From Ignavibacteriota bacterium (lineage in GTDB: Bacteria > Bacteroidota > Ignavibacteria > UBA10030 > UBA6906), in assembly GCA_003152875.1 (NCBI GenBank), contig PMBF01000076.1, positions 180,604 through 244,603 on the forward strand: 64,000 bases of DNA, given 5' to 3'. This document shows positions 1,614 through 26,119 of this stretch, one piece after another. Both the position numbers and the translations under genes were made by a program. The notes beneath the pieces are model-generated. The model did not search any database. It was given only the letters and a program-made list of their open reading frames with translations, and was not told where the DNA came from. Positions within the stretch are counted from its first letter, which is position 1. The number at the start of each line of letters is the position of its first letter.

Positions 1614-2114
1614 CTACTTTACCTTCTCGATCCTGGCGGCCCAGCCTCCACCGGGTGCCAAATGGATCTTCAACGTGTCGCCTGCTGCCGTCTTTATCAC
1701 CTCTCGTTTGTAATCGGTTGCGTCGCGATCTGCATTGATGCCGTCCTGGAACACTTCCGCAACGTAGGCTCCTTCGGAAAGAAATGAGAGGTTGAGCGCA
1801 AGGTCTCGTGCATCCCAGTTGCTCATTGCTCCCACATACCAGGTATCTCCTTTTCTGCGGGCAAGAGCCACGTACTCCCCCACTTTCCCATCCATTGGCA
1901 CAGTCTCATCGAACGTCGTAGGGACTTTGGTGTTGTTGTCGCGAACGTGCTTCTTGACCATGCCATAGGAGTGTCCGGGGGAATTGTGTTTTGACCGGTG
2001 GAGGGATGGAACTGACACACTCTTCGACCTTCCAGGTGAGAACCACCATGGTGGAACCGGCATGCCGTCAATGTCGTAAGCCTGGTCGTCGACCACACCC
2101 GGTAGTCTGGTCAT
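1614..2114 (-). pseudogene. Truncated C-terminal fragment of a glycoside hydrolase family 97 (SusB-like alpha-glucosidase). It is 166 aa where a full GH97 is about 650-700 aa.
   Basis: Motifs such as GDTWYVGAMSNWDARDLALNLSFL...AEVFQDGINADRDATDYKREV match the GH97 C-terminal domain. The TIM-barrel catalytic part is absent. Confidence 0.5.
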
Positions 2115-3040: not shown

Positions 3041-3778
3041 TCATCGCCGCAACGCCGCCTTCGAAAATAGGTAATCGGGAATAGGGGCATCAAGAGCGAG
3101 TGAATCAACGAGGAATTCTGTCCCCTCTCCTTCCGTGAGGACGTCCTTATACAGCACTGACTTGGCCTGCCATGCGTTTTGAACTCTCATCACCTCCCTG
3201 ACATCGATCGTCTTCAATAGTTTTCCACCTTCCGCGTAAAGGTTTTGTCGCAGTACCACGGCACGCTCCTTGTCCACCCAGATGCGCCGGTGATCGTAGG
3301 CGATATCCTGCCTTTTCGCCTTGAGATCGAGAATCCAGCACTCGCGCCCTCCGACGGTATCGCGGGAGACCACCGTCGCCGAGTAGACGTTGGGCAGGTG
3401 TGGGTCTTCCATCATGTCCTCATAGGAGAGATCCGAGCCCATGACGGATTGGCGAAGCAAGTGGCCCGATATCATGATGATGCGATCGGTAGAGGGAGAG
3501 TAATCCCACAACATGTCCTTGAGCTTGAGCATCTTCGTTCCTTTCTCCCTTGCCGGCGCAAGAAATTCCGTGTACGCCTCATTCGTGCCGCGTTGCCACG
3601 ACTTGGATTCCACTGTTCTGGTCTCCCGGCGTCCGTGTATGATCATGCGCGCTACGGCAATCCTGCGTTCCGAGAACATGTTTTGATCGACCTTCTTCAG
3701 GATCTCATCTCCGGTAGGCCCTGCAAACCCGAACGAAAGGGCATTGAGTGCGATCAACACGGAAAGCGGACGTATCAT
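3041..3778 (-). CDS. Outer-membrane lipoprotein-sorting protein, LolA-like, of the family that accompanies MacB-type ABC transporters. It carries a signal peptide.
   Basis: Signal peptide MIRPLSVLIALNALSFGFA. It sits at the end of an ABC ATPase and two FtsX permeases on the same strand, with a 4-bp overlap to the permease. Confidence 0.55.
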   Translation of the reverse strand: MIRPLSVLIALNALSFGFAGPTGDEILKKVDQNMFSERRIAVARMIIHGRRETRTVESKSWQRGTNEAYTEFLAPAREKGTKMLKLKDMLWDYSPSTDRIIMISGHLLRQSVMGSDLSYEDMMEDPHLPNVYSATVVSRDTVGGRECWILDLKAKRQDIAYDHRRIWVDKERAVVLRQNLYAEGGKLLKTIDVREVMRVQNAWQAKSVLYKDVLTEGEGTEFLVDSLALDAPIPDYLFSKAALRR

Positions 3779-5070
3779 GTTTCAAGTTCCTTGAATAATT
3801 CAGATGTTTGCCGCCTGTAAATGCCGATGCCGGAGATCGTGGTCCCGAGAAATGTGGCAAGCAAGCCCGGAAGAAACCCGATCACATAGGAGAACGGCGA
3901 TATCCGGGCCCGTATGATGTTGGGAAGCATCATCGTGCTCTCCTTCAAGACCGACCCGATATCGAACCCATGCGCCTGAGTATATGCGGCCGCCGCCAAT
4001 CCGGTCGCCGTGCCGGCCACAGCGCCGGCGAAACCGATCATCAGCGACTCAGCCTGCAACGACACGTAGACGTGCTCCTTTTCCTCACCGATCGCGAGAC
4101 GGACGCCGAATTCTCCGTATCGCCGCAGACTTCCCGTCAACCCCGCATTCCATAGGACGATCGACATCGCCACAACGAAGACACCCATGATGACTCCCGA
4201 AAATACATCAACATAGTCGAGATAGTCAGACAGCCCGCTTTGGGTGCGAGGGGTTCCCATGACCGGGGAGAATGCGCCTGTATCACGAGGAGAGTCCCCG
4301 GGATCATTCCTGTGACAGGCATTGAAGACTGCGGTGACCGCATTTGCCCGATCTTCGTGATAGAGATCGTCTGCAAAGAAGCCCAGGATCTCTCCCGCGC
4401 CCCCCTGCATATCCAGGGCCTGCTGTATGTCCGCGAGATCTGCAATCACTGTCGCCTTGTCCATTGCGGCAATTCCGAACCGGACCGTACCGGCAATGAC
4501 GAAATTCATGACGCTCATGCTCCCGTACATGGTCGAACTGATGAATGTGGCGGTGTCGCCAGGCTGGATGCCGAGACGGGCTGCAAGGTCCACGCCTGCC
4601 AGGATTTCCCCGCGGTTTCTTGGCACGCGCCCCTGGACGATGGCGTTTTCGATGTTGAGTATACGCCATTCGGGACTGTCGGGGGAGAGCAGATCGACCG
4701 CCATTCCACTCACGGGAGCCTGTGCCCTCGTCTCACCCTTCTCGTCCGGGATATCCAGAAGTCCCCCGAACTTGATGCGCGGAGTCCAGAGGAGATCCGG
4801 ATACAGGCGGCGCAATTCCGTCATGAGTGTATCGATTCCCAGCAGTCCCAAATCGTTGGGGTTTTGGTCTGCTTCCTTCGCGTAGGCCTTCGTCATCACA
4901 CGAATGTGGCCTGTGCTGTAGTGCGCCGTGGATTCCAGCAGGGATGAGAGCACACCGTTCAACCAGGCGTGCAAGAACACCGTCAAGACGACGCCGGCAA
5001 ACACGGTGAGGAATGGGAACAGGGACCGGGATCGATCGCGCAAGAGACCCTTAAACAGGAAGGGGATCAC
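3775..5070 (-). CDS. ABC transporter permease, FtsX/MacB-like with a large periplasmic domain. The first 198 aa of the 629-aa track ORF are an out-of-frame overlap with the upstream permease and were trimmed; the start is a GTG in a GTGA overlap.
   Basis: The protein-like sequence begins at ...VIPFLFKGLLRDRSRSLFPFLTVFAGVVL. Four TM segments occupy the C-terminal third. The stop of the upstream ORF overlaps the GTG start (ctTGTGTGAtcc). Confidence 0.7.
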   Translation of the reverse strand: MIPFLFKGLLRDRSRSLFPFLTVFAGVVLTVFLHAWLNGVLSSLLESTAHYSTGHIRVMTKAYAKEADQNPNDLGLLGIDTLMTELRRLYPDLLWTPRIKFGGLLDIPDEKGETRAQAPVSGMAVDLLSPDSPEWRILNIENAIVQGRVPRNRGEILAGVDLAARLGIQPGDTATFISSTMYGSMSVMNFVIAGTVRFGIAAMDKATVIADLADIQQALDMQGGAGEILGFFADDLYHEDRANAVTAVFNACHRNDPGDSPRDTGAFSPVMGTPRTQSGLSDYLDYVDVFSGVIMGVFVVAMSIVLWNAGLTGSLRRYGEFGVRLAIGEEKEHVYVSLQAESLMIGFAGAVAGTATGLAAAAYTQAHGFDIGSVLKESTMMLPNIIRARISPFSYVIGFLPGLLATFLGTTISGIGIYRRQTSELFKELET

Positions 5071-6239
5071 ACAAGTTTCCCCCTGAGCGCGTCCACCGGT
5101 TTCAGCTTTGCTATTGTCCTCGTCGGAAGGAAGCTGACGATGGTGGTGACAACGCAGACGAGGAGCGTCGTGCCGATGATCAACGCAGGCGAATAGACCG
5201 GGAAGAGCCTCTGACCTATGGCAACACCGAAGTTGTCCGTCCCGGCGGGGAGTTCGAAGCCTAAGCTCGCGGCGTAAGCGAAGAGTGGAATTCCGTAACA
5301 GGAGCCGAGAATCGCAGCAAGGACGCTGTGAAACGCGCCTTCCATAGTGAACAATTCTATGACCCCTCCCCGGGTCATGCCAAGGGCCATGAGCGTCCCT
5401 ATCTCCTTCCGGCGCCGCCAGATGGAGAGGATTTGCGTGTCGAAAATGGCAAGCATGGCAAGAAACAAGAGGAAGAGGTACATGATGCTGCCCTGAACGC
5501 TTTTCATTCGTACAAGCGAGTGGAGATCCCGGAGAAGAAAGCCAAGATCCTTGAATTCCCACCCTGGCACTTCGTTGAGGGGAACGGCGCTCCTGTTCAC
5601 CACCACGATCGTCGCCTGGTCCGGCAAGTGCGTCAATTCCTGCAGCCGATCCAACGGAATCCACACCTGCTCATTATCGATATCCTGCACGGAGGTCCTG
5701 AACACCTCCACGATGCTCACGTCCCGCGCGTCGTATGTACCGTGAGTATCCCTCCAACGGACCGTCACGACATCTCCCTTCTTCAGCCCGGCGCCTTTTG
5801 CCATTCTGGCCCCAATCAACCCGGGGAGTTCATCATGACCGGTTCTTAGCAGATGCGAAGGGACCGACAGGATTGTCTGGCCGGGATCAATGCCTTTCAA
5901 AAGAATGGACCGGAACCGCCCATGAGGGTAGAACGTAGCAGGACGGATGAGAATAGACGTCGCTGAGGTATCGCTCACCAGCTTCCGCAGCGGCGGCGGG
6001 ATCGGTGCATGGGCGTCTTCCAGCGACAGGGGATCGAAAGGACCGTATGCATTTTGCCAGTACTGTCCGCCGCCGAACAGGGCATCCACGGTGGAGCGTT
6101 CCACCTGGTCGTTCAATCCTTCATAGAGGCCCTGCAGAAAAATGATCGAGACAAACGCAAATGAAAGGGCGGCGACATTGAGCCATGTTCGCAGGCCTGC
6201 ACTGAGAATATTCCTCGCGGCAAGTTTCAGGGTGAGCAT
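5067..6239 (-). CDS. ABC transporter permease, FtsX-like, MacB/LolC/LolE family.
   Basis: N-terminal TM helix, a periplasmic domain, and the C-terminal FtsX 4-TM region ...LMALGMTRGGVIELF...; it is adjacent to the ATPase. Confidence 0.8.
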   Translation of the reverse strand: MLTLKLAARNILSAGLRTWLNVAALSFAFVSIIFLQGLYEGLNDQVERSTVDALFGGGQYWQNAYGPFDPLSLEDAHAPIPPPLRKLVSDTSATSILIRPATFYPHGRFRSILLKGIDPGQTILSVPSHLLRTGHDELPGLIGARMAKGAGLKKGDVVTVRWRDTHGTYDARDVSIVEVFRTSVQDIDNEQVWIPLDRLQELTHLPDQATIVVVNRSAVPLNEVPGWEFKDLGFLLRDLHSLVRMKSVQGSIMYLFLLFLAMLAIFDTQILSIWRRRKEIGTLMALGMTRGGVIELFTMEGAFHSVLAAILGSCYGIPLFAYAASLGFELPAGTDNFGVAIGQRLFPVYSPALIIGTTLLVCVVTTIVSFLPTRTIAKLKPVDALRGKLV

Positions 6240-6242
6240 GAT

Positions 6243-6959
6243 TCACCTCACAGCGAGAGGGGGTTGATCACTGCGTTCGTCTTTCGAGATTCTGCCATCG
6301 ATGAGCGTGATTTTTCGCTTCAGGTAGCCGATCACTTTCTCGTCATGGGTGGCAAAAACAAACGTTGTTCCAAGCTCTTCGTTCAACTGTACCATGGTTC
6401 TCATGATGTGGTGAGAGTTCGCCGCATCGAGATTCGCCGTGGGCTCATCTGCCAGCACGATTTCCGGCTTTTTGACAATCGCCCTGGCGATCGCTACGCG
6501 CTGTCCTTGCCCACCGGACAGTTGGACTGGCCTGGAATCGGCACGATCGGCCAGGCCGACCCATTCGAGGGCTTCTTCGACGAGCTGCCTGCGGCGGGAA
6601 GATTCGACTCCTTGCAGGAGCAAAGGGAATTCGACGTTTTCATACACCGTGTAGACCGGGAGCAGGTTGAAGGTCTGGAAAATGAAGCCGATGTGGCCGT
6701 TTCGCAAGCCCGCCGCCTCTTTTTGAGAAAGAGAATCTATTCTCCTGCCAAGCACTTCGGCGGTTCCGCTTGTTGGCGCGTCGAGAGAGCCGATGATGTT
6801 GAGGAGAGTCGTCTTCCCCGAGCCGCTCGGTCCGACCAGTCCGAGGAATTCCCCTCTAGTCACTGTGAGAGTGACGTCATCGGGCGCTTTCAGGCTAGTC
6901 AGCCCAAGCGAATAGGTCTTCTCAAGGTTTTCGGTCTTTATCAGTGCTGAGTTCTGCAT
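6243..6959 (-). CDS. ABC transporter ATP-binding protein, LolD/MacB-type.
   Basis: Walker [10 protein letters not shown], signature [14 protein letters not shown] and Walker B ILADEPT are all present. Confidence 0.9.
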
Positions 6960-7020
6960 GCGTCCTTCCGCTTGTGCTTGAACTCCCTGTCACGATTCCG
7001 TTGCCAGGGATGATGTTCCG

Positions 7021-8221
7021 CTAATGATTGAAGACGGCCATGAATTGAAACCCGGTGCCGGCAAACCGGCTTTCGCTTGCCTGATTGCGATAGAGCTGGA
7101 TGTTCTCCGGGTTCCAGAACCCGAGGAGATAGAAGCTCCAGTTGTCGTAGGTCCGCTGCCAGGTTATCAGTCGATACCACTCGCGGTTCTTCCAGTCGCG
7201 GTACAATATGGCGGAAAGCTGGTCGACGACCCCAACCGGATACGTGAGCGACAAGGCGGAGAAGCCAGACCCCTCGGCGGGAGCAAACAGCCCGGTCGAG
7301 CTTTCAGACCGGAAATACTCGGTCGCTGCATACATGCCGTTCCCGACAGGAATGGTATAGTCCGCCCCTACCGTCCCACTGCCGCTGGTATTGCGCTCCA
7401 AGCAGGCCGCTTTCCTGACGCACCAGCACCCCTTCGAACCAGACTCCGATGCCGATATCCCATTTGCCATCCAGGCCCAGACGATCTTCCGGAGCAATGA
7501 GGCTGCTTCCGTCATCGTGAGCGAATACCAAGGGACTCAAATCCGCACGCCGGTTGTGATACGTGACACCAATTTCGCCTATCCACAGCGGGGATTGCAC
7601 CCTTCCCCCGAACTCGAAGGTTCTGGCTTCCGTCGGGACTGCCTCCAACCCTTTGGTGTTGTTATTGCCGTAGAGGCCCCAGAGCCAGATGTTGACGTTG
7701 TTCGTAAAGTAATACCGCGCTAACCCGGCATACACTCCGTCAGTCAGCTGGAGCGGGTCGCGCGGGTCGAGCCAGTCAAACCACATCAGAGGCCGGAGAA
7801 GCATCGCAGAGCCGAAGTTGATTTTCTGCAAACCGATCCAGACTTCAAGTCTGTCCGTCGAGAGCCGAAGCCAGAGGCGGTACGGCCTGGCGTGCCATTC
7901 CGAGGAGGGGTGCTTATCCCCAGCCGTGCGGACGATCGCATACGCGTTGAGCGACACTTCCATGTCGGCGTCGATCCCGCCGCCCAGCGGTTCCTTGACA
8001 AGAAGATTGGGGAGATAGCGAAGACCCGTCTGAACGAGCGGCGGGGATTCCGGATTCGTCGTGAGCCATGCCGAGGCCTGCCCGTGCAGATCCGCCGCCT
8101 GCGGCCGGGCGCTCTGCGCAAGAAGCAGAACAACCAGACAGGATGCCGCCCGGTTGACCACCTGGGGCTTTGAGTGCCTCCCCGTTCGTCCCGTGAGCCC
8201 GTTCATGACGTACGGCGCCAT
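7021..8221 (-). pseudogene. Putative outer-membrane beta-barrel protein, split by a frameshift into two overlapping ORFs (7304..8221 and 7021..7515). It has a signal peptide and the C-terminus ends ...FQFMAVFNH.
   Basis: The two ORFs overlap by about 210 bp in different frames. The sequence looks protein-like only in the N-terminal part of the first ORF and the C-terminal part of the second. It has an aromatic- and Gly-rich beta-strand composition. Confidence 0.4.
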
Positions 8222-8842
8222 TCTCTATGTGGATTTCTCCCATCGGGACGTCAGCGTCTCGATGAGGTGATGCGTGATGGCATCAATCGGAAAGAGCTCA
8301 GGCGCAACTGTGTAGTTTGCGACAACTCCATCAAAGACGAACATCAGGAGAAAACAATCAAGCTCCGGCTCGTCGGATCCCAGTCGTTTGATGAGCTTCG
8401 TAAGGCGTGCGAAAGGCGCGCGCCAAGCGGTTCATTCTTGATGACGTCAAGCCAGGCATTGACAAGCGAGACGAACCTCTCCTTTGCCGGCCGCGGAGAC
8501 AGCTCTTGAACCCCTGCTCGTACGTCGGAGGCTTGGTGACATCGCAGGTGGGAGGAGACGGGAAACACTACACGGCATACGCCTCTGATGGAACGATCAG
8601 AGTTGTCGGCGGCGGTGGTCTCATCATGAGATGGGGCGGACATTCGAATGCGGCAGGCAGAACAACCCGTTCTCTCTGAAACCATCCAGGTATTTCGTGC
8701 GCTGGAGCCGGGTGAATGACGAAGGCTTCGGATGTCTGCTGGGTGGCAACGGTCTTCCTGTGCTTCAGGCGGGATGATAACACGGCCGAACACCTCGCGA
8801 AGATACCCCTTCGCGCACCTCCTTGAAGCGCGCCCCCGTCCC

Positions 8843-10342
8843 TCATCTCAAGACGAGGAGTGACCTCGTGCGTACAACATCTCCCGCCCGCAATTTGTAG
8901 AAATACACTCCGGATGGGAGATGCGAGGCGTCGAACCTCACCTCATGGCTTCCGGCATCCATCTCCCGGTTGATCAGATCCGCCACTTTCTGTCCGAGCT
9001 CGTTGTACACCGTCAGACGGATGCGCACCCGCTGCGGGAGCGCAAACCGGATCGTGGTCGACGGGTTGAAGGGGTTGGGGTAATTCTGTTCCAGCTCAAG
9101 AGAGATCGGGGTGACCGCCTCCTGCGCAGGGACACCAGTGGGATGTGCGGCGAAAAGCTCATCATGCGCCTTCAGGATGACCCCGGGCAAGGCATTTGCA
9201 TTCAGGGCAAAGACTTCAAGATACTGCGCCACCATGGGATCGCCCGTGCCTTTCGGGTAGATCCCGGTTTCAAGCTCGGCCAGGTATGTTGAGTCGGTGC
9301 AGTGCGTGGTGTCCCCCGTTCCTCCGCAGGCAGCACCCAGCCCTGTGATTTCCTCGTTGGTTTGAAATGCGATCATCGTCTTCAGGCTCTCTGCGGCCTG
9401 GACGGTCTCTGTCTCAGCCGGTACACCGGGATAGAGGCTGTTGTTCTGAATCACCAGGTGACCGGGGAACTTCAGGCTGGCAAGTGTCAGCAGCGGCAGG
9501 TTCTGGTTCGGAATTGCGCCGGTGATGACGGAGCCGTCTTCGGCGATTGGAGGAAACGGGTTGGTACTCGCAATGATCGCCACGCTGAACGATTTGTCGG
9601 GAAAACTATTCTTGAACGCGCTGGTTGTGCCGTCCCAGCCTTTGAGCATCAGCGACGGCCTGTACCCTGCAGTCAGCCACGTGGCGACGGCGTCGGATGC
9701 ACATGGGGCCGCGGAGGGTTGCCGCGCGGGCAGATGCAGTTCGTCCGAATCCTTGTTGATCCCGGTCAGCCGAAGGAGAACCACAGCGTCATAGGTGCCG
9801 GCATGTTTGAGGTGAGCAGAGACTGAGTCCAGCATGGAGCTCCACTGAGCCAGGAAAAGCGTGTCCCACGGTGCGGCAATGGTCTCAGGGAGACATGTCG
9901 TATCCACCGGTTTCCGGGTGAAGGAGAAGAAGACCGGCCTGGCGCCGCCGCCGTTCGGCTGGGGTTGAAACAACCAGGACGGCGTATGGTAGTCCGCCCT
10001 TATCGAAAGCTCGACCTTTTTGCCTGCCGAGATTGCGATGTTCATCCACTGGTCCAAGGCGGTCCAATTAAACTTGCCCTTGGCAGGCTCGATATGATTC
10101 CAACCGACGACAAGCACCAGGCCATCGACGCCCGCCACTTTCAGGGAAGTGACCAGCGCTGTCGAGTCTCCCGTCGAGATGGGAAGGGCGTTGCTGTCGA
10201 CATAGATACCCCGCAAATCGGCCACGGTGGGGGTTTGCGTTGGCGATTCAGAAGAGCCGGAGTTCTGGGCAGAAATCGCGGGTTGTATCGCCAGGCTGCA
10301 CCCCACAACGACGAGCGCAATCCCGAGTGTGGTGTTCTTCAT
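8843..10342 (-). CDS. Secreted glycoside-hydrolase-like TIM-barrel protein (GH42/GH35-like fold, family not assigned) with a T9SS (Por) C-terminal sorting domain.
   Basis: Signal peptide; a W..IEP.KG.FNW motif typical of TIM-barrel glycosidases; C-terminus ...LEQNYPNPFNPSTTIRF...GVYFYKLRAGD..., consistent with TIGR04183. Confidence 0.6.
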   Translation of the reverse strand: MKNTTLGIALVVVGCSLAIQPAISAQNSGSSESPTQTPTVADLRGIYVDSNALPISTGDSTALVTSLKVAGVDGLVLVVGWNHIEPAKGKFNWTALDQWMNIAISAGKKVELSIRADYHTPSWLFQPQPNGGGARPVFFSFTRKPVDTTCLPETIAAPWDTLFLAQWSSMLDSVSAHLKHAGTYDAVVLLRLTGINKDSDELHLPARQPSAAPCASDAVATWLTAGYRPSLMLKGWDGTTSAFKNSFPDKSFSVAIIASTNPFPPIAEDGSVITGAIPNQNLPLLTLASLKFPGHLVIQNNSLYPGVPAETETVQAAESLKTMIAFQTNEEITGLGAACGGTGDTTHCTDSTYLAELETGIYPKGTGDPMVAQYLEVFALNANALPGVILKAHDELFAAHPTGVPAQEAVTPISLELEQNYPNPFNPSTTIRFALPQRVRIRLTVYNELGQKVADLINREMDAGSHEVRFDASHLPSGVYFYKLRAGDVVRTRSLLVLR

Positions 10343-10919
10343 GACCCGAATCGTCTCCTAGCATGCACTGCACGTCGACTCGCGAGCACAGATGTCAGGG
10401 GTTCGTAGTGCCAGCTGAGGGCCCGACGCCTCATATCCGTAGCGAACACCGGCATTTATGTCGAAGTTCATTGAAGGCACGGAATCTCCAGAGACCTTGA
10501 GGCGCGGATCGCGCTTCCTGAACGGGATCAAGGTTCTCCATGCGTGCTCCCGAAAGGAATCTGTTGGGTGGATGGCCAACAAGGGGGCCTCAGGGCCCGA
10601 GGGACTACAGATCCCTCTTGCATTACCGTTACTGCACTTGCTCGGCGGTCCTGCTAAGAAAAATCCCCGACAGGGATATCGGGGATCCGTTTCTGCATAA
10701 GCCGTATGTCGCCCGAGAGTTCCAGCTCCATCTTGGACCGGGAGAGCAGCGGACTCAGAAGGACGCTTGCTTTCCCGGCTGTTTCTGTTGCACAATTCCT
10801 CTTCATGGGACGGTCCACTTCGGTCACTGGATGCAGAAGCCACAACCTCACCCGAGAAAAGAAAACGACAACTTCTTCCCGGCAACGGGAGACCTGAAGA
10901 ACCGTCCTTTTATGGCCTT

Positions 10920-13556
10920 CTATTTCAGCACGAGGAGGGTCTTCGTCTCAACCGAGCCTCCCGCCTCCAATCTATAGTAGTATGTCCCACTGGAAAGGTC
11001 GTGGGCATTGAATGTCACCTCATAACGACCCGCCTGTTCGAATGTGTTCACCAGAGTCTGGATCTGTCTCCCAAGCACGTCAAATACCGTCAGACTCACA
11101 TGTGATGCATAGGGGATTTCATAACGGATGGTGGTGGTCGGGTTGAAAGGATTGGGGTAGTTCTGAAGCAGTTGTAGTGCACGAGGCACAGGATGCTCGG
11201 GAATCGGGACATCCGTGGTTGATGTGTTGAATGCAAACGGCATCATCCACAATTCATCAGGAGTATTGTGCCACGCAGGAGTGTGCGAATATAGCACGTA
11301 CCCGGTCTGCCCGATGGTCTGTTCGCGGTATGCAGGGGTCACCAGAATGACATTTTCATCTGTCTGTTGACCTTCCGTGAACTCCTTGACAGGAGCATCA
11401 AAGAACTTCTTTGGCGGCGTCCACGTTACCAGGTCAGCTGATGTGGAGAAATACCACCCCTTTTCGCAAATGAAGATCAGGACATATGCATTGAGGTAGG
11501 TGCTGTACACCACCCATGGTTGCGCTGGGCGCGAATCCGAGAACACTGTCGGAACAACCTGAGAACCGAACCCTCCAATTCCCGGCTGTGACCCAAAAGC
11601 GCCCTCGTAGAATTTCGTCCACGAACCAGGTGCTCCGTCAGTGGCAACAGGAGCTCGCGCAACCTGGATGGTGGAAGGCCCGGCATCTGAGTCGCCCTGC
11701 GTCGGGAAATATGCATAGAACGCGTAGATGTACCCTCCGGCGACTATCGCTCCCGGCTCCACGGCGCCCATTATGCCGCCTTTCGGAAGTGTGTCAGGCT
11801 TGACATCGCTCCCCGAGACCACAGCACCTTGCCGTTGCCATGAGACACCGTTGTCACTAGAACGTGCAAGTCCGATCACACACCACGCCGGATCGTTCTT
11901 TTCGTCGGGTGAACCAATCCCGTAATATATTGACTGAGCGTGGTAGAGCATGAGCAGGTCTTTGCCGTTGCTTGCCGGAAAGACGAGATCCGCCCCGGCA
12001 TAGTCTGCGTCATACTTGCTCCAGCATGTCACCGACCCCGGGCGGCAGCTTGGAGCCAGGACCACCTGCGCGGTGGTGGAGCTCCCGACCGGTCTATAGG
12101 ACAGAAAATCTCTGGTGGTGATCAGTCCGGTCGCCCCGTAGATGCTGTCGCTGTAGAAGTGACCGACAATCCAAACGCGGTACGTCGAATCTGCCTGGCG
12201 GATAAAAGTCATGTGCATGTCGGGCACTGTCGTCATTCCCATTGCGTCGGGTTTGTCCGCGTGGAAGAGCTGTTGTGGAGTGCCGAGGCTGATGTCCACC
12301 TCGGGCGGCAGGGGCCCGGCGACGATTTCCTGATGCGCCAGAAGAATGTCCTGGGGGAAAGCGTTCGCATTAATGGGCCAGACCTCGAGGTACTGTGACC
12401 TTAGGCCGAAGTCCTTCCCCAGCGGATAGATTCCTGTTTCAAGCTGGGACAAGTACGGAGCTGAGGTACAAGGGATGGGATTGGCCGGTGTTCCTCCGCA
12501 TGCGGCCCCCGAATCAGTCAGACTGTAGAAGTTATTCGTCTGGAACCCAACCAGGGTCCCGAGAGTCTGCGCTGCCTGAATGACAAACCAGTTTGCAGGA
12601 GTGTCGTTCAGCAGGAAGTTAAACTGGACCAGAAGGCGTCCAGGGAATTTCTCCGCGGCAAGGGCCAGCAAAGGCTGGTTCAGGTCGGGAACCGTTCCGG
12701 AGATCGTTGCGCCGGACCCGTCAATGGGGGGAAACGATAGCTGAGGCGGATTGGGAATAATCGCAACAGAAAAGGCCTTGTCCGGAAAGGACTTGAGAAA
12801 TGAATTTGTTATTGCATCCCAAGCCTCGAGGAGTTTGGCCGGGCGATATCCAGTGAGTTGCCACAACGAGATTGCATCGCTCACACACGAGAGACCTGTG
12901 GATTGGGCGGTCTCTGCCGGCAGCCGGAGTTCATCGGAGGTGCGATTGATTCCCGTCAATCGCAATGCGGCAATGGATCCGTAGGTCCCGGTGGTTTTCA
13001 GATGCGTGGACACATTTATCAGCAGGGTGTCCCAGAGGGCCAGGTAGTGTGCGTCCCAAGGGGCTGCAATTGTCTCCGTATCACAGACACCCGTCTTCCC
13101 TTCATGTGGGGAAATCCTGAAGTTCAACGGGGGAACACCCCCGCCTACCGGAGCGGCCTGGAACACCCACGACGGGATTCCGCTTCCGGACTTCATGACC
13201 AAAGTGATCTTCAGATTCAAAGAGTCGGCAAGCCCTAACCAGTTGTCCAGCCTTTGCCAGCTGTATTGTCCATGTGCAGGCTCAAGTGCGCTCCATGTGG
13301 TCACCATGGTCAGACCATCAACTCCGGGCAGCCTCAATGCCTCCTGCACTTTCAGACCTTGCGGGCTCGTGTACGCTTCATCGTTATTAATGATGTAGAT
13401 TCCCCTCAGATCTGCCGTTCCGGTCGACACCGCCGATCCGCCTGCCCCCGCAAATGCACGAACCAGGACCACAAGGCTGGATATGGCAATCAATACCGTT
13501 CTCATCCCTTCACCTTTGGGTTTTCTCAAAACCTTCTGCTTTGCGAAACGAGGCAA
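10920..13556 (-). CDS. Large secreted paralog of the previous gene: the same GH-like TIM-barrel N-domain, an extra beta-propeller/beta-sandwich domain of unknown function (DUF4185-like) and a T9SS C-terminal sorting domain.
   Basis: The N-terminal approx. 350 aa align by eye with the 499-aa paralog (ADLRGIY..., ETIAAPWD..., RLTGIN..DELRLPA..., FPDK.FSVAII...). The C-terminus is LQLLQNYPNPFNPTTTIRY...GTYYYRLEAGG. Confidence 0.6.
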   Translation of the reverse strand: MPRFAKQKVLRKPKGEGMRTVLIAISSLVVLVRAFAGAGGSAVSTGTADLRGIYIINNDEAYTSPQGLKVQEALRLPGVDGLTMVTTWSALEPAHGQYSWQRLDNWLGLADSLNLKITLVMKSGSGIPSWVFQAAPVGGGVPPLNFRISPHEGKTGVCDTETIAAPWDAHYLALWDTLLINVSTHLKTTGTYGSIAALRLTGINRTSDELRLPAETAQSTGLSCVSDAISLWQLTGYRPAKLLEAWDAITNSFLKSFPDKAFSVAIIPNPPQLSFPPIDGSGATISGTVPDLNQPLLALAAEKFPGRLLVQFNFLLNDTPANWFVIQAAQTLGTLVGFQTNNFYSLTDSGAACGGTPANPIPCTSAPYLSQLETGIYPLGKDFGLRSQYLEVWPINANAFPQDILLAHQEIVAGPLPPEVDISLGTPQQLFHADKPDAMGMTTVPDMHMTFIRQADSTYRVWIVGHFYSDSIYGATGLITTRDFLSYRPVGSSTTAQVVLAPSCRPGSVTCWSKYDADYAGADLVFPASNGKDLLMLYHAQSIYYGIGSPDEKNDPAWCVIGLARSSDNGVSWQRQGAVVSGSDVKPDTLPKGGIMGAVEPGAIVAGGYIYAFYAYFPTQGDSDAGPSTIQVARAPVATDGAPGSWTKFYEGAFGSQPGIGGFGSQVVPTVFSDSRPAQPWVVYSTYLNAYVLIFICEKGWYFSTSADLVTWTPPKKFFDAPVKEFTEGQQTDENVILVTPAYREQTIGQTGYVLYSHTPAWHNTPDELWMMPFAFNTSTTDVPIPEHPVPRALQLLQNYPNPFNPTTTIRYEIPYASHVSLTVFDVLGRQIQTLVNTFEQAGRYEVTFNAHDLSSGTYYYRLEAGGSVETKTLLVLK

Positions 13557-13559
13557 ATA

Positions 13560-14230
13560 TCGCTAGAAGTTCCATAATTGGCAGAGGCGTTGTCGTTTTC
13601 TCCCGGGTTCCTATGCGCCGGGACCGCCTTTCCACGTGAGGGCTCCGCGCTTGACGTGAGATGAACAAACCCAGGACGCTGCTCCCGGGCCACCGCAGGC
13701 CGCCTGTTTGTCGTTCGAGGGAGGCAGGTCTTCGTTGGTCTGAAAGGCGATCATGGTTCCGAGCGATTGTGCGGCATGGATGGTCTGGGGCTGCGCCGGT
13801 TCTGTCACATACAGGCTGTTGTTCTGAATGACCAGGTGACCCGGGAACTTCCGGCTGGCGAGCCTCAGCAACGGCAGGTTCTGAGCAACACTGAGACTCT
13901 CTTGGTTTGCGATGCTGAAGGGAAGGCCGTTTACAGCGATCGGCGGGAACGGGTACGTGGATGCGATGATCGCTACACTGAAGTTCTTGTCGGGAAAGCT
14001 CCTCTGGAAGCTGGTTGTGATGCCAACCCAGCCCTGCAGCATCAGGGACGGCCGGTACCCCGCCTACTGCTATGTGGTGATGGCGTCGCTGACGCAAGGC
14101 AGGCTGGTGGACTGAGCCGTCTCCGCAGGCAGATGCAGCTCATCGGAGTCGCGGTTAATCCCCGTCAGGCGAACGAGCACAACGGCGTTGTATGTGCCGG
14201 CGGTAATGATGATGTAAGACGCTTTCGCCT
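13560..14230 (-). pseudogene. Decayed internal fragment of a third copy of the GH-like gene. Only the middle part is recognisable, interrupted by stops and frameshifts.
   Basis: ORF 13611..14042 reads ...FPDKNFSVAIIASTYPFPPIA...LPLLRLASRKFPGHLVIQNNSLY...MIAFQTNE, near-identical to the middle of the 499-aa protein. Reverse-strand reading of 14040-14200 gives ...LTGINRDSDELHLPAETAQSTSLPCVSDAITT*Q... Confidence 0.55.
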
Positions 14231-14295
14231 TCTGTTGTGATGGCAAGGACCAACGCCAGCGAGCGTGTGCACGAGACGAAGAAGCATGCCCTCAT

Positions 14296-14514
14296 CTACG
14301 GAGTGTTCTTGCCCCCTGGCCCACAATCTTGTTGGTTCGTTCCTCGAGCTGAGACGCCAATTGCCAAACCGACAGCGACGCCAACAGGAATTGCCCAATT
14401 CCAAATCGTGCTATTCCCGGTAATTAACTGGACAGCCAGCGCAATGACTGCCGCTATGATCGCACCCAGTGCCATCCCCGTACCTGCATTGAGCCGCAGC
14501 AATACTGTTTTCAT
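14296..14514 (-). CDS. Small hypothetical membrane protein of 72 aa with two glycine-zipper-like TM helices.
   Basis: Hydrophobic, Gly/Ala-rich helices GMALGAIIAAVIALAV and WAIPVGVAVGLAIGV. Confidence 0.4.
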   Translation of the reverse strand: MKTVLLRLNAGTGMALGAIIAAVIALAVQLITGNSTIWNWAIPVGVAVGLAIGVSARGTNQQDCGPGGKNTP

Positions 14515-14575
14515 CGGATCCTCATTTCAATCTTCACACCTTTGATCAATCGCGTCTTGCGGTACATCGAGAAAG

Positions 14576-14905
14576 TTATGCAGCACCAGTCTGTGCTCGA
14601 TCGCTTCCCTTATCGGGCCCGGCCAGCCCAGATGGACTCAAGCCTTTGAACAAAAGCCAAAGGCCCAATGCCCCCGCTGTACTGGCCTGCTCATTCCATC
14701 GTTGAACGTTTACGCCGATAACGACGAGCCACAGCAACAGCGATGCTTCCCCGAGGACGCCGGCTGCCAGATTGCAGGGGGACAGGAAGTTTGCGAGCGG
14801 CGGTGACAGAGAGATCATCCAACACAAACCGGCGAACGCCATCAGCGCAGAGAAAACGGCCACTATGCCGAATACTCTGCTGTAATAAGAACGAGACGTT
14901 TTCAT
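14576..14905 (-). CDS. Hypothetical membrane protein of 109 aa with about three TM helices.
   Basis: Three hydrophobic segments; no family recognised. Confidence 0.4.
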   Translation of the reverse strand: MKTSRSYYSRVFGIVAVFSALMAFAGLCWMISLSPPLANFLSPCNLAAGVLGEASLLLWLVVIGVNVQRWNEQASTAGALGLWLLFKGLSPSGLAGPDKGSDRAQTGAA

Positions 14906-15026
14906 ACAGACCTGCTACTCTTCTATGAAGCAAGAGTGGCCAGCCTTGTACCGGGAAAACATGAAACGCTCCCATCCATTACTTGAACAGGAGCGTATTG
15001 AAGGGGCAGGATTTGAAAAGACCTAG

Positions 15027-15099
15027 AGCTGGCGGGCGGATTTGAACCGTCGACCTGCTGATTACGAATCAGCTGCTCTACCAGCTGAGCTACGCCAGC
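15027..15099 (-). tRNA. tRNA-Thr, anticodon CGT, 73 nt with no encoded CCA.
   Basis: The reverse complement folds into a cloverleaf: acceptor GCTGGCG/CGCCAGC, D-arm GCTC-AGCTGGTA-GAGC, anticodon arm GCTGA-TTCGTAA-TCAGC (anticodon CGT) and T-loop TTCAAAT. Confidence 0.85.
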
Positions 15100-16712: not shown

Positions 16713-16828
16713 GGTTGTTCCCTCCTTATGTATGGAGAACAGCGGCCAGCAAAGAACGGTTCTTCATCGGATGCGAAGACAGACCAGTTCCAAGCCGTGA
16801 CAAGCTGAACGTGAAGCGATGCCCGGAG

Positions 16829-17111
16829 GCGAGGACCCGGGGGGGAAAGCTCAGAAACGAGAACCTGGAAGGAGAATCTCGAAAGCGAAAAGCCCCCAAG
16901 GGGGAGAGTTTGGACGCGAGGAAGCCGGGGAAAGAGGTCGGAAGCCAGGACTTGGGGGGAGAAGTTCGGAAGCGAGGAAGCCGGGGAAGGAGGTCGGAAG
17001 CGAGGACCTGGGGGGGGAAGCTTGAAAGGGAGAACCCCCCAGGGGGAGAGCTTGGAAGTAAGAAACTGGGGAGAGGCTTCGGGAGGCAAGAAGCCAGGAG
17101 CCGGGAGGCAG
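16829..17111. repeat. Degenerate purine-rich tandem repeat array: about ten copies of an approx. 28-bp unit (consensus near GCGAGGAAGCCGGGGAAGGAGGTCGGAA), including two adjacent 56-bp units of about 88% identity. It lies between the aspA start and the 3' end of the GH31 gene.
   Basis: Read directly; for example 16916-16971 versus 16972-17027. There is strong strand asymmetry: G/A-rich on the plus strand, C/T-rich on the coding-sense minus strand. Confidence 0.7.
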
Positions 17112-21794: not shown

Positions 21795-24700
21795 TCAAGC
21801 TTCCACTCTGTCCGGTTCGATGTGCACCGGGCGCCCTTTCCAGGGAACGCGCGCAGCCCAGACAACGCGCTTGAACAGGACCGGAAGCCTGGCCTTCAGT
21901 CCGTCGACGTAGGTGTAGATGACCGGGATGACGACCAGGGTGAGAAGCGTCGAGCTGATGAGACCGCTGATGACCACAATCGCCATTCCCTGCCGCATCT
22001 CTGAGCCCGCGCCGAGCGCCAGCGCCAGTGGGAGCATGCCGAAGACCATCGTGGCAGTCGTCATAATGATAGGTCGAAGGCGGGTCTTCCCCGCCTCGCG
22101 GAGGGCCTCGTGCATTTCAAGTCCGCGCGCCCGGAGCGTGTTCGTGAAGTCCACGAGCAGGATTGCATTCTTTGTCACCAGACCCATCAGCATGATGATC
22201 CCGATCATGCTGAACATGCTAAGGGACTTGCCGGTAAGGGCAAGGCCGGCCAGGGCGCCGACCAGGGCAAGGGGCAAAGAAAACATGATCGTGAACGGAT
22301 GAATATACGATTCGAACAGGCTGACCATGATGATGTAGACAAAGAGAATCGCCAGACTGAGCGCGATCGTCATATCGCTGAACATGTCGCGCATGTTCTC
22401 CGTGTCTCCTCCATAGAAGACCCTGATTCCGGGCGGTACCCCCCCTGCATTGATCGCCTGCTCCACGGCCGCCGTCACCTGGCCGAGAGAGACCTGGCCT
22501 GAGAGGTTAGCCGCTACCGTGACAAGGCGCTCCCGGTCTTTACGCTGGATCTCCGAAGGACCCTTGCCATAGGTGATCGCCGCGACCTGGCGGAGCTGGA
22601 CCGCCTGGCCATAGTGATTCAACAGGGTGATCTCCGCTACATCGCGTGCCCGGTCGCGGTTGGCTTTTTTCAGGATAACACGCGTATCATATTCAGTATC
22701 TCCTTCGGTGTACTTCGTGCTGACATCTCCTTCAATCGCCGTTCTCACGGCCATTCCGACCTCGGCCAGCGTGAGTCCCATGCGCGAGGCCTTTTCCCGG
22801 TCAATCTCGATCTTGACCTCGGGCTTTCCCTCCTCCCACGACGTTTCGATGCCGGCTGTCCCCTTTGCAGCGGCAAGGATGTCGGCTACTTTTCCCGAAA
22901 AGGCAACCACATCGGTCAGGTTGCTTCCGATGATCTCGATCTGCAGCGGGGCGGCATTTGCCGAGCCGAACATTCCAATGTTGTTGAAACTCATGGTGAG
23001 CCCTGGGATCGTACGGGCCTGCTGTTGAATTGCCATCATGACCTGCTGCGAGGACCGCTTGCGCAGCTGCCGGTCAACGAGCTTGACCTGGACCTGCCCG
23101 ACGTTCGATTGCTCGGCGTTCTTCCATGCGGTCTGCTTCTTACCCGAGGTGGAGAGATAGCGCTGAACCTCCGGCATGGCGGCGACGATCGCCTCCACGC
23201 CTCGCACGGCCTGATCCGTCTTCTCGAGCGTGGTCCCGAGGGGCATGTCCAGGTTAGCGGCGAAATCGCCGCGATCGACGTCGGTCATGAATTCGGTCCC
23301 GATCAGGCCGGCCGGCAGAAGGGCGAGGCTGGCGATCAGGAGCAACCCGCTGGTGAGAAGCACCGTTTTCCGGCGGTCCAGGGCCCACGTCAGGAGATTC
23401 CGGTATGATTCGCCGAGCTGTTCCTGTTTCCCTTCAATCCAGGATATGAACCGGCCGGCGAGGCTCGTCCTGGACCACACCGTCACCTTCGACCATTTTG
23501 CCGAAAGCATGGGCGTGAGCGTGAACGAGACAAAGAGAGAGAGGAGGGTCGAGACGACAATGGTCAGGCCGAATTCTCCGAAAATCCTCCCCACCATCCC
23601 TCCAACCAGCGAGATCGGCAAAAATACGACCACATCCACCAGCGTGATCGCGATGGCGGCAAATCCAATTTCGCTCCTGCCGTTGATGGCCGCCTTCACC
23701 CGTTCCTCTCCCTTTTCCATGTGCCGGTAGATGTTCTCCAGCACGACGATCGAATCGTCGACCAGGATGCCGATGACGAGGGCGAGCGCCATCAGCGAGA
23801 CCAGGTTCAGAGTGAAGTTCAACAAATACATGAAGAAGAATGTCGTGACCAGCGATGTCGGGATCGCGAGGAGCACGATGAGCGAATTCCGCACGCTGTG
23901 CAGGAACAGGAAGAGAACGAGCGCAACCATCAGGATTGCCAGGAACAGGTCGCGGTTCACTTCATGCAGGGCATTGCGGGTGAAATCGGTGATGTCCTGT
24001 GCCACTGTGAACTTGACTTTCCCCGGGTTGTCGGACTCGAACTCCTTCATTGCAAGGCCAAGCCGGTCGCTCGTTTTCACAGAGTTGGCGTCGGATTGTT
24101 TCTGAATAACCAGCACTACGGAATTCTCGCCGTTCAGCCTGGTCTGGAGGGGATTCTCCTTCTCGCTGTCCTTGACCTCGGCAACGTCCTGGAGGTGCAC
24201 CACACCCGCCTGCGTTGCCGCCACCACCATAGTGCTGATCTCATCCGTGCTCCGGAACTTCCCAGCGAGGCGGACGATGTACTGGTTCTGCGCTTCATCG
24301 ATCTTCCCGGTCGGGAAATCCAGGTTCTCGCGCGCGAGCGCCTGGGAGACCTGCAGGATCGACAATCCATAGGAGTTGAGTTTCTGGTTATCGACCTCCA
24401 CCCGGATCTCCCTCTCCCTCCCCCCGACAATCGTGATCGTCGACACGCCGTCGACCTGTTCCAGCCTGGGTTTCACCTTGTCCTTGACGAACTGGAAGAG
24501 ATCCCGGGGGGGGAGGCTCCCCGTGACCGAGATGCGGAGGATCGGGAACGCATTCATGTCCGACTTGGACACACGGGGGGTCTTTGCCTCATCCGGGAGC
24601 TTCGTCCTCGCCTGGTCGACCACGCGCTGGATCTCGTTGGTGACGACATCCACGTCGGCACTGAAGGTGAATTGAGCCAGGATCACCGAGAGGCCTTCAT

Positions 24701-24953
24701 ACGAATAGGAGCGGACATTGTCCAGCTTGTTCACTCCGCTGACCACCTCTTCGAGGGGCTTGGAAACAAGGGATTCGACCTCCTTCGGGCCGGCTCCCGG
24801 ATACACGGTCACCACAGAGACCATGGGCCAATCCATCTTCGGGAGGAGGTCGACGCCCATGCGGCTGTATCCGAAGATGCCCAGCACGGCGAGGGCCACG
24901 AAGATCATAGTCATGAAGGCAGGCCGGCGTATTGCAACTTCTGTGATTTTCAT
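21795..24953 (-). CDS. RND efflux transporter permease, AcrB/HAE1 family.
   Basis: 1052 aa with 12 TM helices and two large periplasmic loops; a typical AcrB N-terminus. Confidence 0.9.
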   Translation of the reverse strand: MKITEVAIRRPAFMTMIFVALAVLGIFGYSRMGVDLLPKMDWPMVSVVTVYPGAGPKEVESLVSKPLEEVVSGVNKLDNVRSYSYEGLSVILAQFTFSADVDVVTNEIQRVVDQARTKLPDEAKTPRVSKSDMNAFPILRISVTGSLPPRDLFQFVKDKVKPRLEQVDGVSTITIVGGREREIRVEVDNQKLNSYGLSILQVSQALARENLDFPTGKIDEAQNQYIVRLAGKFRSTDEISTMVVAATQAGVVHLQDVAEVKDSEKENPLQTRLNGENSVVLVIQKQSDANSVKTSDRLGLAMKEFESDNPGKVKFTVAQDITDFTRNALHEVNRDLFLAILMVALVLFLFLHSVRNSLIVLLAIPTSLVTTFFFMYLLNFTLNLVSLMALALVIGILVDDSIVVLENIYRHMEKGEERVKAAINGRSEIGFAAIAITLVDVVVFLPISLVGGMVGRIFGEFGLTIVVSTLLSLFVSFTLTPMLSAKWSKVTVWSRTSLAGRFISWIEGKQEQLGESYRNLLTWALDRRKTVLLTSGLLLIASLALLPAGLIGTEFMTDVDRGDFAANLDMPLGTTLEKTDQAVRGVEAIVAAMPEVQRYLSTSGKKQTAWKNAEQSNVGQVQVKLVDRQLRKRSSQQVMMAIQQQARTIPGLTMSFNNIGMFGSANAAPLQIEIIGSNLTDVVAFSGKVADILAAAKGTAGIETSWEEGKPEVKIEIDREKASRMGLTLAEVGMAVRTAIEGDVSTKYTEGDTEYDTRVILKKANRDRARDVAEITLLNHYGQAVQLRQVAAITYGKGPSEIQRKDRERLVTVAANLSGQVSLGQVTAAVEQAINAGGVPPGIRVFYGGDTENMRDMFSDMTIALSLAILFVYIIMVSLFESYIHPFTIMFSLPLALVGALAGLALTGKSLSMFSMIGIIMLMGLVTKNAILLVDFTNTLRARGLEMHEALREAGKTRLRPIIMTTATMVFGMLPLALALGAGSEMRQGMAIVVISGLISSTLLTLVVIPVIYTYVDGLKARLPVLFKRVVWAARVPWKGRPVHIEPDRVEA

Positions 24954-24983
24954 AGCAGGGTCCGTTCAGTTGGGCGAGAGACG

Positions 24984-26090: not shown

Positions 26091-26119
26091 GGGAGCTCCT
26101 CAGGATTTCCTGTGACTGT

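Follow-up and report, generated by a model that had tools for sequence, protein, structure and literature searches.

A 64,000-nucleotide stretch of DNA from an Ignavibacteriota bacterium (assembly GCA_003152875.1, contig PMBF01000076.1), referred to here as the window, carries on its minus strand two genes, P1 and P2, for proteins predicted to be exported. Both combine an N-terminal barrel domain (A1) with a C-terminal sorting domain of the type IX secretion system (T9SS), and P2 additionally contains a five-bladed beta-propeller (A2). The remnant of a third A1-family gene, two small open reading frames (ORFs) and a tRNA-Thr(CGT) gene complete the cluster (Table 1). An initial annotation, made from the letters alone, had described two intact paralogs with a common N-terminal domain, two tiny membrane proteins and a tRNA gene at the end of the cluster. 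This layout holds: both paralogs lie on the minus strand at or close to the positions proposed, each small ORF encodes two hydrophobic segments, and ARAGORN and Rfam both recover the tRNA. The 72-aa and 109-aa ORFs are regarded simply as neighbours of the P1 and P2 genes.

Table 1. Features of the P1/P2 locus in window coordinates, with PF04185 sites from other loci in the last row. P2 residues follow the 878-aa numbering.
Feature	Position	Strand	Details
P1	8843-10342	minus	ORF; predicted 499-aa exported protein: signal peptide, barrel (A1), T9SS C-terminal domain
P1 barrel, A1 domain, residues 40-400	9143-10225	minus	
P1 T9SS type A C-terminal sorting domain, residues 421-499	8846-9082	minus	PF18962 and TIGR04183
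P1 candidate catalytic glutamates	E201, codon 9740-9742; E376, codon 9215-9217	minus	
P2	10920-13505	minus	Predicted 861-aa exported protein: signal peptide, A1 barrel, five-bladed propeller (A2), T9SS C-terminal domain
P2 barrel domain, residues 48-414	12315-13415	minus	A1 hidden Markov model (HMM), 583 bits; ~44% identity to P1 barrel
P2 barrel conserved glutamates	E209; E391, codon 12384-12386	minus	Codons checked
P2 five-bladed beta-propeller, A2 domain, residues 415-781	11214-12314	minus	
P2 T9SS type A C-terminal sorting domain, residues 800-878	10923-11159	minus	PF18962 and TIGR04183
Remnant of third A1-family gene	~13659-14213	minus	~185 codons; tblastn
72-aa ORF	14296-14514	minus	Two hydrophobic segments; no significant family match
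109-aa ORF	14576-14905	minus	Two hydrophobic segments
tRNA-Thr(CGT)	15026-15099	minus	ARAGORN; Rfam tRNA, 67.9 bits
PF04185 sites in other loci	L006/L007:9423-10946; L019:7025-8533; L029:17916-19097; contig of P0123		

The P2 frame can be read from a TTG as an 878-aa ORF (10920-13556) or from an ATG at 13505 as an 861-aa protein. Gene callers working on identical public contigs choose the ATG, which is closely preceded by a GAAGGG stretch and is the likely start. The 577-bp gap between P2 and P1 (10343-10919) contains no more than a 175-aa ORF that matches no family and, at 10677-10663 and 10582-10561, two weak terminator-like hairpins, an arrangement that suggests separate transcription of P1 and P2. 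A protein 100% identical to P1 (P0001) occurs on contigs of several assemblies, including GCA_003155505.1 (PMCX01000253.1) and a 'WOOD18' scaffold. In GCA_003155505.1 (L002; L numbers denote loci retrieved from other assemblies and genomes), the P2 gene at 6846-9423 is split into 747-aa and 108-aa products and an aspartase-like region at 3120-5030 is called differently. Other assemblies of the same population show neither feature, and both are probably assembly or consensus errors.

Comparison with curated profiles confirms that both proteins end in a T9SS sorting domain, as first proposed. PF18962 (cut-off 27) matches P1 with 38 bits and P2 with 36.9 bits, TIGR04183 (cut-off 23) matches them with 37.5 and 40.9 bits, and all matches run to the last residues; the two C-terminal domains are 43% identical. 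Hydrophobic N-terminal segments (residues 4-26 of P1 and 1-24 of P2 in its 861-aa form) point to a Sec signal peptide in each. By analogy with the known T9SS pathway, Sec would move P1 and P2 across the inner membrane by way of this signal peptide, and the T9SS would then read the C-terminal sorting domain and carry them over the outer membrane. Many further Por_Secre_tail proteins are encoded in related Ignavibacteriota loci. The barrel family as a whole is always extracellular, and its export or anchoring modules vary by phylum, comprising T9SS domains, TIG/TIGR03437 domains, RTX repeats with a serralysin C-terminal domain, and Ig-like or cadherin-like domains.

The N-domains of P1 and P2 are 44-46% identical (44% over 403 residues, E 1e-104). 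An AlphaFold2 model built from a 29-sequence alignment (pLDDT 88.5, pTM 0.89) shows eight beta/alpha units arranged as a (beta/alpha)8 barrel, with a beta-hairpin insertion after beta3. Its closest folds are the beta-amylases of glycoside hydrolase (GH) family 14, followed by GH35 and GH42. Foldseek returned beta-amylases at E 1e-10 with a TM-score of ~0.62, and GH35 and GH10 next. At the sequence level, no Pfam or NCBIfam model covers the barrel, and NCBIfam adds nothing beyond TIGR04183. Pfam gives only a partial PF02449 (GH42) match over ~52 residues (26 and 23 bits) and a weak GH123_cat hint in P1 (E 0.076). Searches of the Protein Data Bank with P1, P2 and the barrel-family profile produced only marginal partial matches in the beta2 region; beta-amylase matches found with phmmer reached E 0.005-0.05 over ~60 residues only. 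The initial description of a TIM-barrel, GH-like domain outside any named family is thus borne out, with the qualification that "unclassified" refers here to Pfam and NCBIfam models rather than to CAZy/dbCAN, and a recently created CAZy family may already cover it.

The family is widespread. A word-indexed search found 353 relatives at E<=0.001, mostly from metagenome-assembled genomes (MAGs) of Acidobacteriota (Thermoanaerobaculia and Blastocatellia) and other soil bacteria, some of them labelled 'beta-galactosidase' by NCBI. An HMMER scan of 1.84 billion representative proteins (50%-identity clusters) yielded 300 barrel clusters at E<=1e-30, 1,073 at E<=1e-10 and 2,357 at E<=0.001, and the distant members likewise lack a dedicated Pfam model.

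Conservation across the family identifies a probable active site. In an alignment of 54 barrel sequences reaching down to ~25% identity, only G6, E162 and E337 are invariant. The alignment takes in a divergent barrel fused to DUF4185 in the reverse domain order (L005), which keeps both glutamates. E162 corresponds to E201 of P1 and E209 of P2, and E337 to E376 of P1 and E391 of P2. At least 90% of the sequences also share four cysteines, several tryptophans, Q288 and N290, and the cysteines fit an extracellular protein. E162 sits in the motif TGIN-x3-D-E-L-[HR]-L-P on the loop after beta4, and E337 in Q-Y-[IL]-E-V on strand beta8. On strand beta7 the last residues are Q-T-N, and the residue after them varies (E, N or L). 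An acidic pair is therefore retained throughout the wider family, so the refuting condition set in the initial annotation, a non-enzymatic fold lacking such a pair, does not apply. From this invariance and the modelled fold the probable catalytic pair is E201 on the beta4 loop and E376 on beta8 in P1. The barrel is presumed to be a hydrolase in which these two residues take the catalytic roles.

Residues 415-781 of P2 form a second, independent module. AlphaFold2 models this region as an all-beta, five-bladed propeller (pLDDT 91.7) whose best structural match is the GH183/DUF4185 endo-D-arabinanase EndoMA1 (8hhv), so that the label first given to this module, a DUF4185-like beta-propeller, describes its fold fairly. 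Nearly all of its 135 relatives are stand-alone secreted proteins of 340-520 aa, and none of the 135 has a Pfam annotation on the propeller domain. Among 33 aligned members, D446 in VPDMH (D32 of the alignment, at the blade-1 position) and D516 in YDADYAG are invariant, and E600 of an EPGAI motif is kept in most; the spacing of D446, D516 and E600 appears to resemble that of the GH43 Asp/Asp/Glu triad. The P2 propeller also contains an Asp-box, ARSSDNGVSW.

The relationship of this propeller to GH183 is more distant than the fold suggests. GH183 enzymes hydrolyse with retention and use two catalytic aspartates spaced by 17-18 residues, D33 and D51 in EndoMA1, and their only known substrate is the D-arabinan of mycobacterial arabinogalactan and lipoarabinomannan (PMC10509167, PMC10115798). 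In a by-eye strand alignment, the 'FGD' strand of true DUF4185 proteins corresponds in the propeller family to 'W-I-T-G', an invariant glycine followed by a variable residue. PF13810 has no match in P2 at E<=1 and matches 2 of the 33 aligned members weakly (best E 1.3e-4); BNR_2 gives weak matches through the Asp-box in eight members, and searches of the Protein Data Bank with P2 and the propeller-family profile found only marginal partial matches, again at the Asp-box. One paralog, L039:6652-8085, bridges the two groups, scoring E 3e-33 against the propeller-family HMM and 31 bits against PF13810 (cut-off 39.5), and it has Asn in place of the blade-1 Asp. With this sequence included in the DUF4185 set, hhalign relates it to the propeller family at 94.4% probability (E 9e-8); against five DUF4185 domains without it, or against one, the probability is 0.3%, which is no signal. 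Membership of the P2 propeller in GH183 is not established.

Genomic context links the two modules. A scan of one genome per species gave 39 barrel loci in MAGs of Acidobacteriota, Ignavibacteriota, Chloroflexota and Verrucomicrobiota, making 40 with the window, and all ORFs in these loci were scanned with family HMMs and Pfam. In 13 of the 40 loci, spread over four phyla, the barrel is fused or adjacent to a GH183-type propeller or a true DUF4185 domain, and both domain orders are seen. Genes that fuse barrel and propeller are present in the window and in the Ignavibacteriota loci L011, L014, L032 (split), L034, L035 and L041, and L010 has a P1-type gene with a propeller C-terminal fragment (L010:13388-13645). 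In the Verrucomicrobiota locus L039, a propeller gene ends 4 bp before the barrel gene. True PF13810 genes adjoin barrel genes in L008 and L019 (both Chloroflexota) and L040 (Acidobacteriota), and one lies ~5 kb away in L046. Two genes, L005:14206-17088 (-) and L014:2636-5314 (+), have the reverse order, DUF4185 followed by a divergent barrel (~27% identical to P1) and a T9SS domain; the L014 example directly follows a barrel-propeller fusion gene. Because fusion or adjacency recurs in several phyla and in both orders, the barrel and the propeller probably share one extracellular substrate.

Among 141 immediate neighbours of barrel genes, the commonest families are DUF4185, PF04185 phosphoesterase, PF00702 (HAD hydrolase) and HATPase_c, with three occurrences each, and only the first two bear on glycan breakdown. 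The 25 commonest neighbour families include no context resembling a polysaccharide utilisation locus and no GH172, GH116 or other D-arabinan pathway genes. PF04185 genes (phospholipase C/acid phosphatase family) come immediately after stand-alone propeller genes in two unrelated contexts and stand next to or near barrel genes in further ones (Table 1). These neighbours may point to a phosphodiester-containing substrate.

Taken together, the most probable reading, to which we assign a likelihood of about 70%, is that a peat-dwelling Ignavibacteriota bacterium exports P1 and P2 as extracellular enzymes, ancient paralogs built on an unclassified GH-like barrel that in P2 is joined to a GH183-related propeller. 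The shared module would be a (beta/alpha)8 barrel whose acid, on the beta4 loop, takes the place that the general acid has in beta-amylases, and whose second glutamate lies on beta8. The second module of P2 would be a distant relative of the GH183/DUF4185 endo-D-arabinanases, and the two modules would most likely cut different bonds of one complex glycan. P1 would then be a single-module paralog with diverged specificity, and the third copy a truncated and inactivated relative. As for the substrate, a furanoside-rich microbial cell-wall or exopolysaccharide glycan, for example an actinobacterial arabinan or arabinogalactan, is a speculative suggestion, and the choice of furanoside-rich bacterial wall glycans is a low-confidence guess by analogy.

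Several observations weigh against this reading. A glutamate pair on the beta4 loop and beta8 is a non-canonical geometry for both GH14 and clan GH-A, and the sequence likeness of the barrel to known glycoside hydrolases is confined to ~50 residues around beta2. On the propeller side, the GH183 acid/base aspartate appears to be absent from the P2-type family, to judge from the strand alignment, and at the profile level the link to DUF4185 hinges on a single bridging sequence (94% with it, 0.3% without). Coupling is seen in only 13 of 40 loci, and most Acidobacteriota barrel genes stand alone. Finally, the substrate proposal draws solely on the single known GH183 activity (PMC10509167, PMC10115798).

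Among the alternatives, a beta-amylase-like exo-alpha-glucanase in an alpha-glucan utilisation locus survives best, and it is unlikely. GH14 enzymes use a general acid glutamate on loop L4 and a general base glutamate on beta7 (E186 and E380 in the soybean enzyme). GH14 is the top structural match of the barrel, and the DEL[HR]LP motif resembles GELRYP around the general acid. In an hhalign comparison with soybean beta-amylase, E162 falls on the GELRYP glutamate; the probability is 11%, and the alignment makes sense only in its first half, as far as the beta4 loop, so it serves as a hint only. Nearby lie a GH31 gene and a GH97 fragment, and both families include alpha-glucosidases. However, neither P1 nor P2 matches PF01373 (GH14) at E<=1, structural-alignment identity is ~12%, and, judged by strand position, P1, P2 and the family consensus all have Thr where the beta7 catalytic base would sit. 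GH31 and GH97 genes are also not recurrent neighbours of the barrel in other genomes, whereas GH183-type propellers are.

A different kind of alternative concerns the history of the locus. The initial annotation had pictured a young, dynamic locus shaped by island insertion at tRNA-Thr, where one gene had recently duplicated in tandem, one copy had acquired the propeller on the spot and a third copy was decaying. Three family members in tandem on one strand beside a tRNA gene invite this view. The window also holds a second truncated glycoside hydrolase gene at 1614-2114 (-), a 166-aa ORF with only the GH97 C-terminal domain (PF14509, E 1e-32), which is called as the same fragment on L004. The third copy is indeed decayed: tblastn aligns 14204-13659 with P1 residues 181-343 (64% identity, E 2e-67) and the remnant with P2 residues 188-365 (52% identity), so the other refuting condition of the initial annotation, a lack of significant alignment to the paralogs, does not apply either. 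Its decay took another form than the frameshift and internal deletion first proposed. The remnant stays in one reading frame, spans only beta4-beta7 of the barrel, and has lost ~180 N-terminal codons and everything after an 'AACGG' motif; no further piece of the gene could be detected in any frame. Two single-base nonsense changes give in-frame TAG stops at 14070-14072 and 14064-14066, reading 'TAG CAG TAG' against W-Q-Q in homologs. Three independent assemblies of the population (L001-L003) carry this remnant with both stops, so it is not a sequencing artefact.

Divergence among the copies argues against recent duplication. P1, the P2 barrel and the remnant are 46-67% identical to one another, and each has closer relatives in other genomes. 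The nearest relatives of P1, ~64-66% identical, are spread across Chloroflexota, Acidobacteriota and Ignavibacteriota; those of P2 are fusions in Ignavibacteriota/Ignavibacteriae MAGs at 82-86% identity. The closest relative of the remnant is L014:3-2576, a third subtype of barrel-propeller fusion (71% over 174 aa, E 1e-79), with which it has a distinctive loop insertion in common. Low mutual identity and closer relatives elsewhere identify the three copies, on sequence comparison, as ancient paralogs that were brought or kept together. Because the barrel-propeller fusion exists in several Ignavibacteriota genomes, it predates the genome of the window, and the proposed domain accretion at this locus falls away.

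Evidence for tRNA-associated insertion is likewise lacking. A 22-mer from the tRNA 3' end, allowing up to 3 mismatches, is found only in tRNA-Thr itself, so there is no direct repeat. The 15-nt near-copy of the tRNA 3' half that might favour an island, TCAAATCCGCaCGCC at 7537-7551 (+) with one mismatch, is inverted, lies inside the coding sequence of a 305-aa ORF and is absent from the L010 ortholog. Shuffled sequences give 0.26 expected tRNA-like 15-mers at up to 2 mismatches, and the match is probably due to chance. GC content is flat (0.545-0.604 across 9-15 kb and 0.55-0.61 in the flanks), and neither the genes called within 10 kb on identical contigs nor the window ORFs scanned include an integrase or transposase family. 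Beside P1, an operon at 3041-8221 (-) encodes the 305-aa protein (orf305), an ABC ATPase, two FtsX permeases and a LolA-like protein. It is syntenic with L010:13661-18746 in another Ignavibacteriota MAG (55-81% identity), where the P1 ortholog lies on the opposite side of the ABC/FtsX/LolA-like operon. None of the loci fetched from other genomes has the aspartase-like gene or the tRNA-Thr site, and in the other Ignavibacteriota loci fetched the barrel family is never beside tRNA-Thr. A terminator-like hairpin follows the tRNA at 14996-14966, and scans of 7-17.5 kb with Rfam and for promoters and terminators returned nothing besides the tRNA and this hairpin. The young-locus account is improbable and already largely refuted, and its tRNA hotspot is not supported, although none of the fetched loci allowed an empty-site comparison. 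The initial annotation therefore holds in its biochemical part, a GH-like family that is secreted and unclassified, with an extra domain resembling DUF4185, and fails for recent duplication, local domain gain and the tRNA hotspot.

It is highly improbable that the barrel is an ordinary GH42 or GH35 beta-galactosidase, the name that the NCBI pipeline gives to several homologs. Clan GH-A enzymes carry the acid/base glutamate in an N-E dyad after beta4 and the nucleophile glutamate at the end of beta7. In the barrel family the sequence after beta4 is N-x3-D-E, without that dyad, and Q-T-N occupies the nucleophile position on beta7. The PF02449 match covers only profile positions 30-81 of 376, in beta2-beta3, the GH42 trimerisation and C-terminal domains are absent, and GH14 scores higher than GH42 or GH35 in both structure-search tools. 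There is equally little to recommend one or both modules as non-catalytic, glycan-binding or structural surface proteins: the beta7 glutamate has gone from the barrel, the GH183 acid/base aspartate from the propeller, and the blade-1 aspartate from the L039 paralog, but two glutamates strictly invariant in a family diverged to 25% identity, together with the blade-1 and second aspartates invariant in the propeller family, form patterns typical of active sites and speak against pseudo-enzymes.

Other features of the window lie outside the P1/P2 cluster. An imperfect purine-rich tandem repeat with a 28-nt unit and a 56-nt super-unit (89% match) occupies 16813-17108, in a 565-bp gap between an aspartase/fumarase-like gene and the GH31 gene, and several long spurious ORFs overlap it. 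Upstream of the GH31 and alpha-beta hydrolase genes are a complete resistance-nodulation-division efflux operon at 21795-27553 (-), encoding AcrB-like (1052 aa), HlyD-like (368 aa) and outer-membrane factor (477 aa) proteins, and an M13 peptidase gene at 28633-30681, both unrelated to P1 and P2.

A search of the literature found no description of either family. New here are a conserved candidate catalytic pair and its cross-phylum coupling to GH183-type propellers; GH183 itself was discovered only in 2023. The barrel is a candidate for a new CAZy family with a non-canonical catalytic pair, and with 300 clusters at the strictest threshold it is not a small one; some members are mis-named 'beta-galactosidase'. 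The repeated coupling offers a testable hypothesis on the degradation of microbial wall glycans by abundant soil and peat bacteria. The boldest version is rather doubtful: a new GH family with a beta4-loop acid and a beta8 glutamate would be the missing partner of GH183-type endo-arabinanases in dismantling actinobacterial wall glycans of the arabinogalactan or lipoarabinomannan type. If this is true, soil members of Ignavibacteriota, Acidobacteriota, Chloroflexota and Verrucomicrobiota would use barrel and propeller, often with a PF04185 phosphoesterase, to turn over bacterial necromass in peat by a route not recognised before. The locus itself is more ordinary, an old paralog cluster with one dead copy and not an active hotspot.

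Several known systems, among them secreted carbohydrate-active enzymes (CAZymes), bear comparison with P1 and P2. GH14 beta-amylases (PDB 3voc, 1b90 and 7upv) have the closest fold to the barrel, yet beyond the low identity and missing profile match described above, the barrel has, by strand position, Thr at their beta7 base, its second invariant glutamate on beta8, and genomic partners that are furanosidase-type propellers, not starch-utilisation genes. Clan GH-A beta-galactosidases of GH42 and GH35 (PF02449; PDB 4ucf, 8z43 and 8faa) match over ~50 residues only, and the barrel lacks their N-E dyad, beta7 nucleophile and accessory GH42 domains. With the GH183/DUF4185 endo-alpha-D-arabinofuranases EndoMA1 (8hhv), Rv3707c and DgGH4185, the P2 propeller shares the five-bladed fold and the first aspartate (D446). 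It differs in having Gly or a variable residue at the acid/base position and in carrying an Asp-box, and D516 and E600 suggest a GH43-like arrangement instead. As T9SS type A cargo of the Fibrobacteres-Chlorobi-Bacteroidetes group (TIGR04183/PF18962), P1 and P2 are nothing unusual, each with a ~75-aa C-terminal domain above curated cut-offs, an 'NYPNPFNP.T.I' start to that domain and an N-terminal signal peptide. In overall architecture, P2 resembles secreted CAZymes with two catalytic domains, such as GH10-GH43 xylanase/arabinofuranosidases (PDB 7ezo/7erl), which likewise join a barrel and a five-bladed propeller in one exported chain, presumably for joint action on a single heteropolymer; in P2, however, both modules come from unclassified or marginally classified families.

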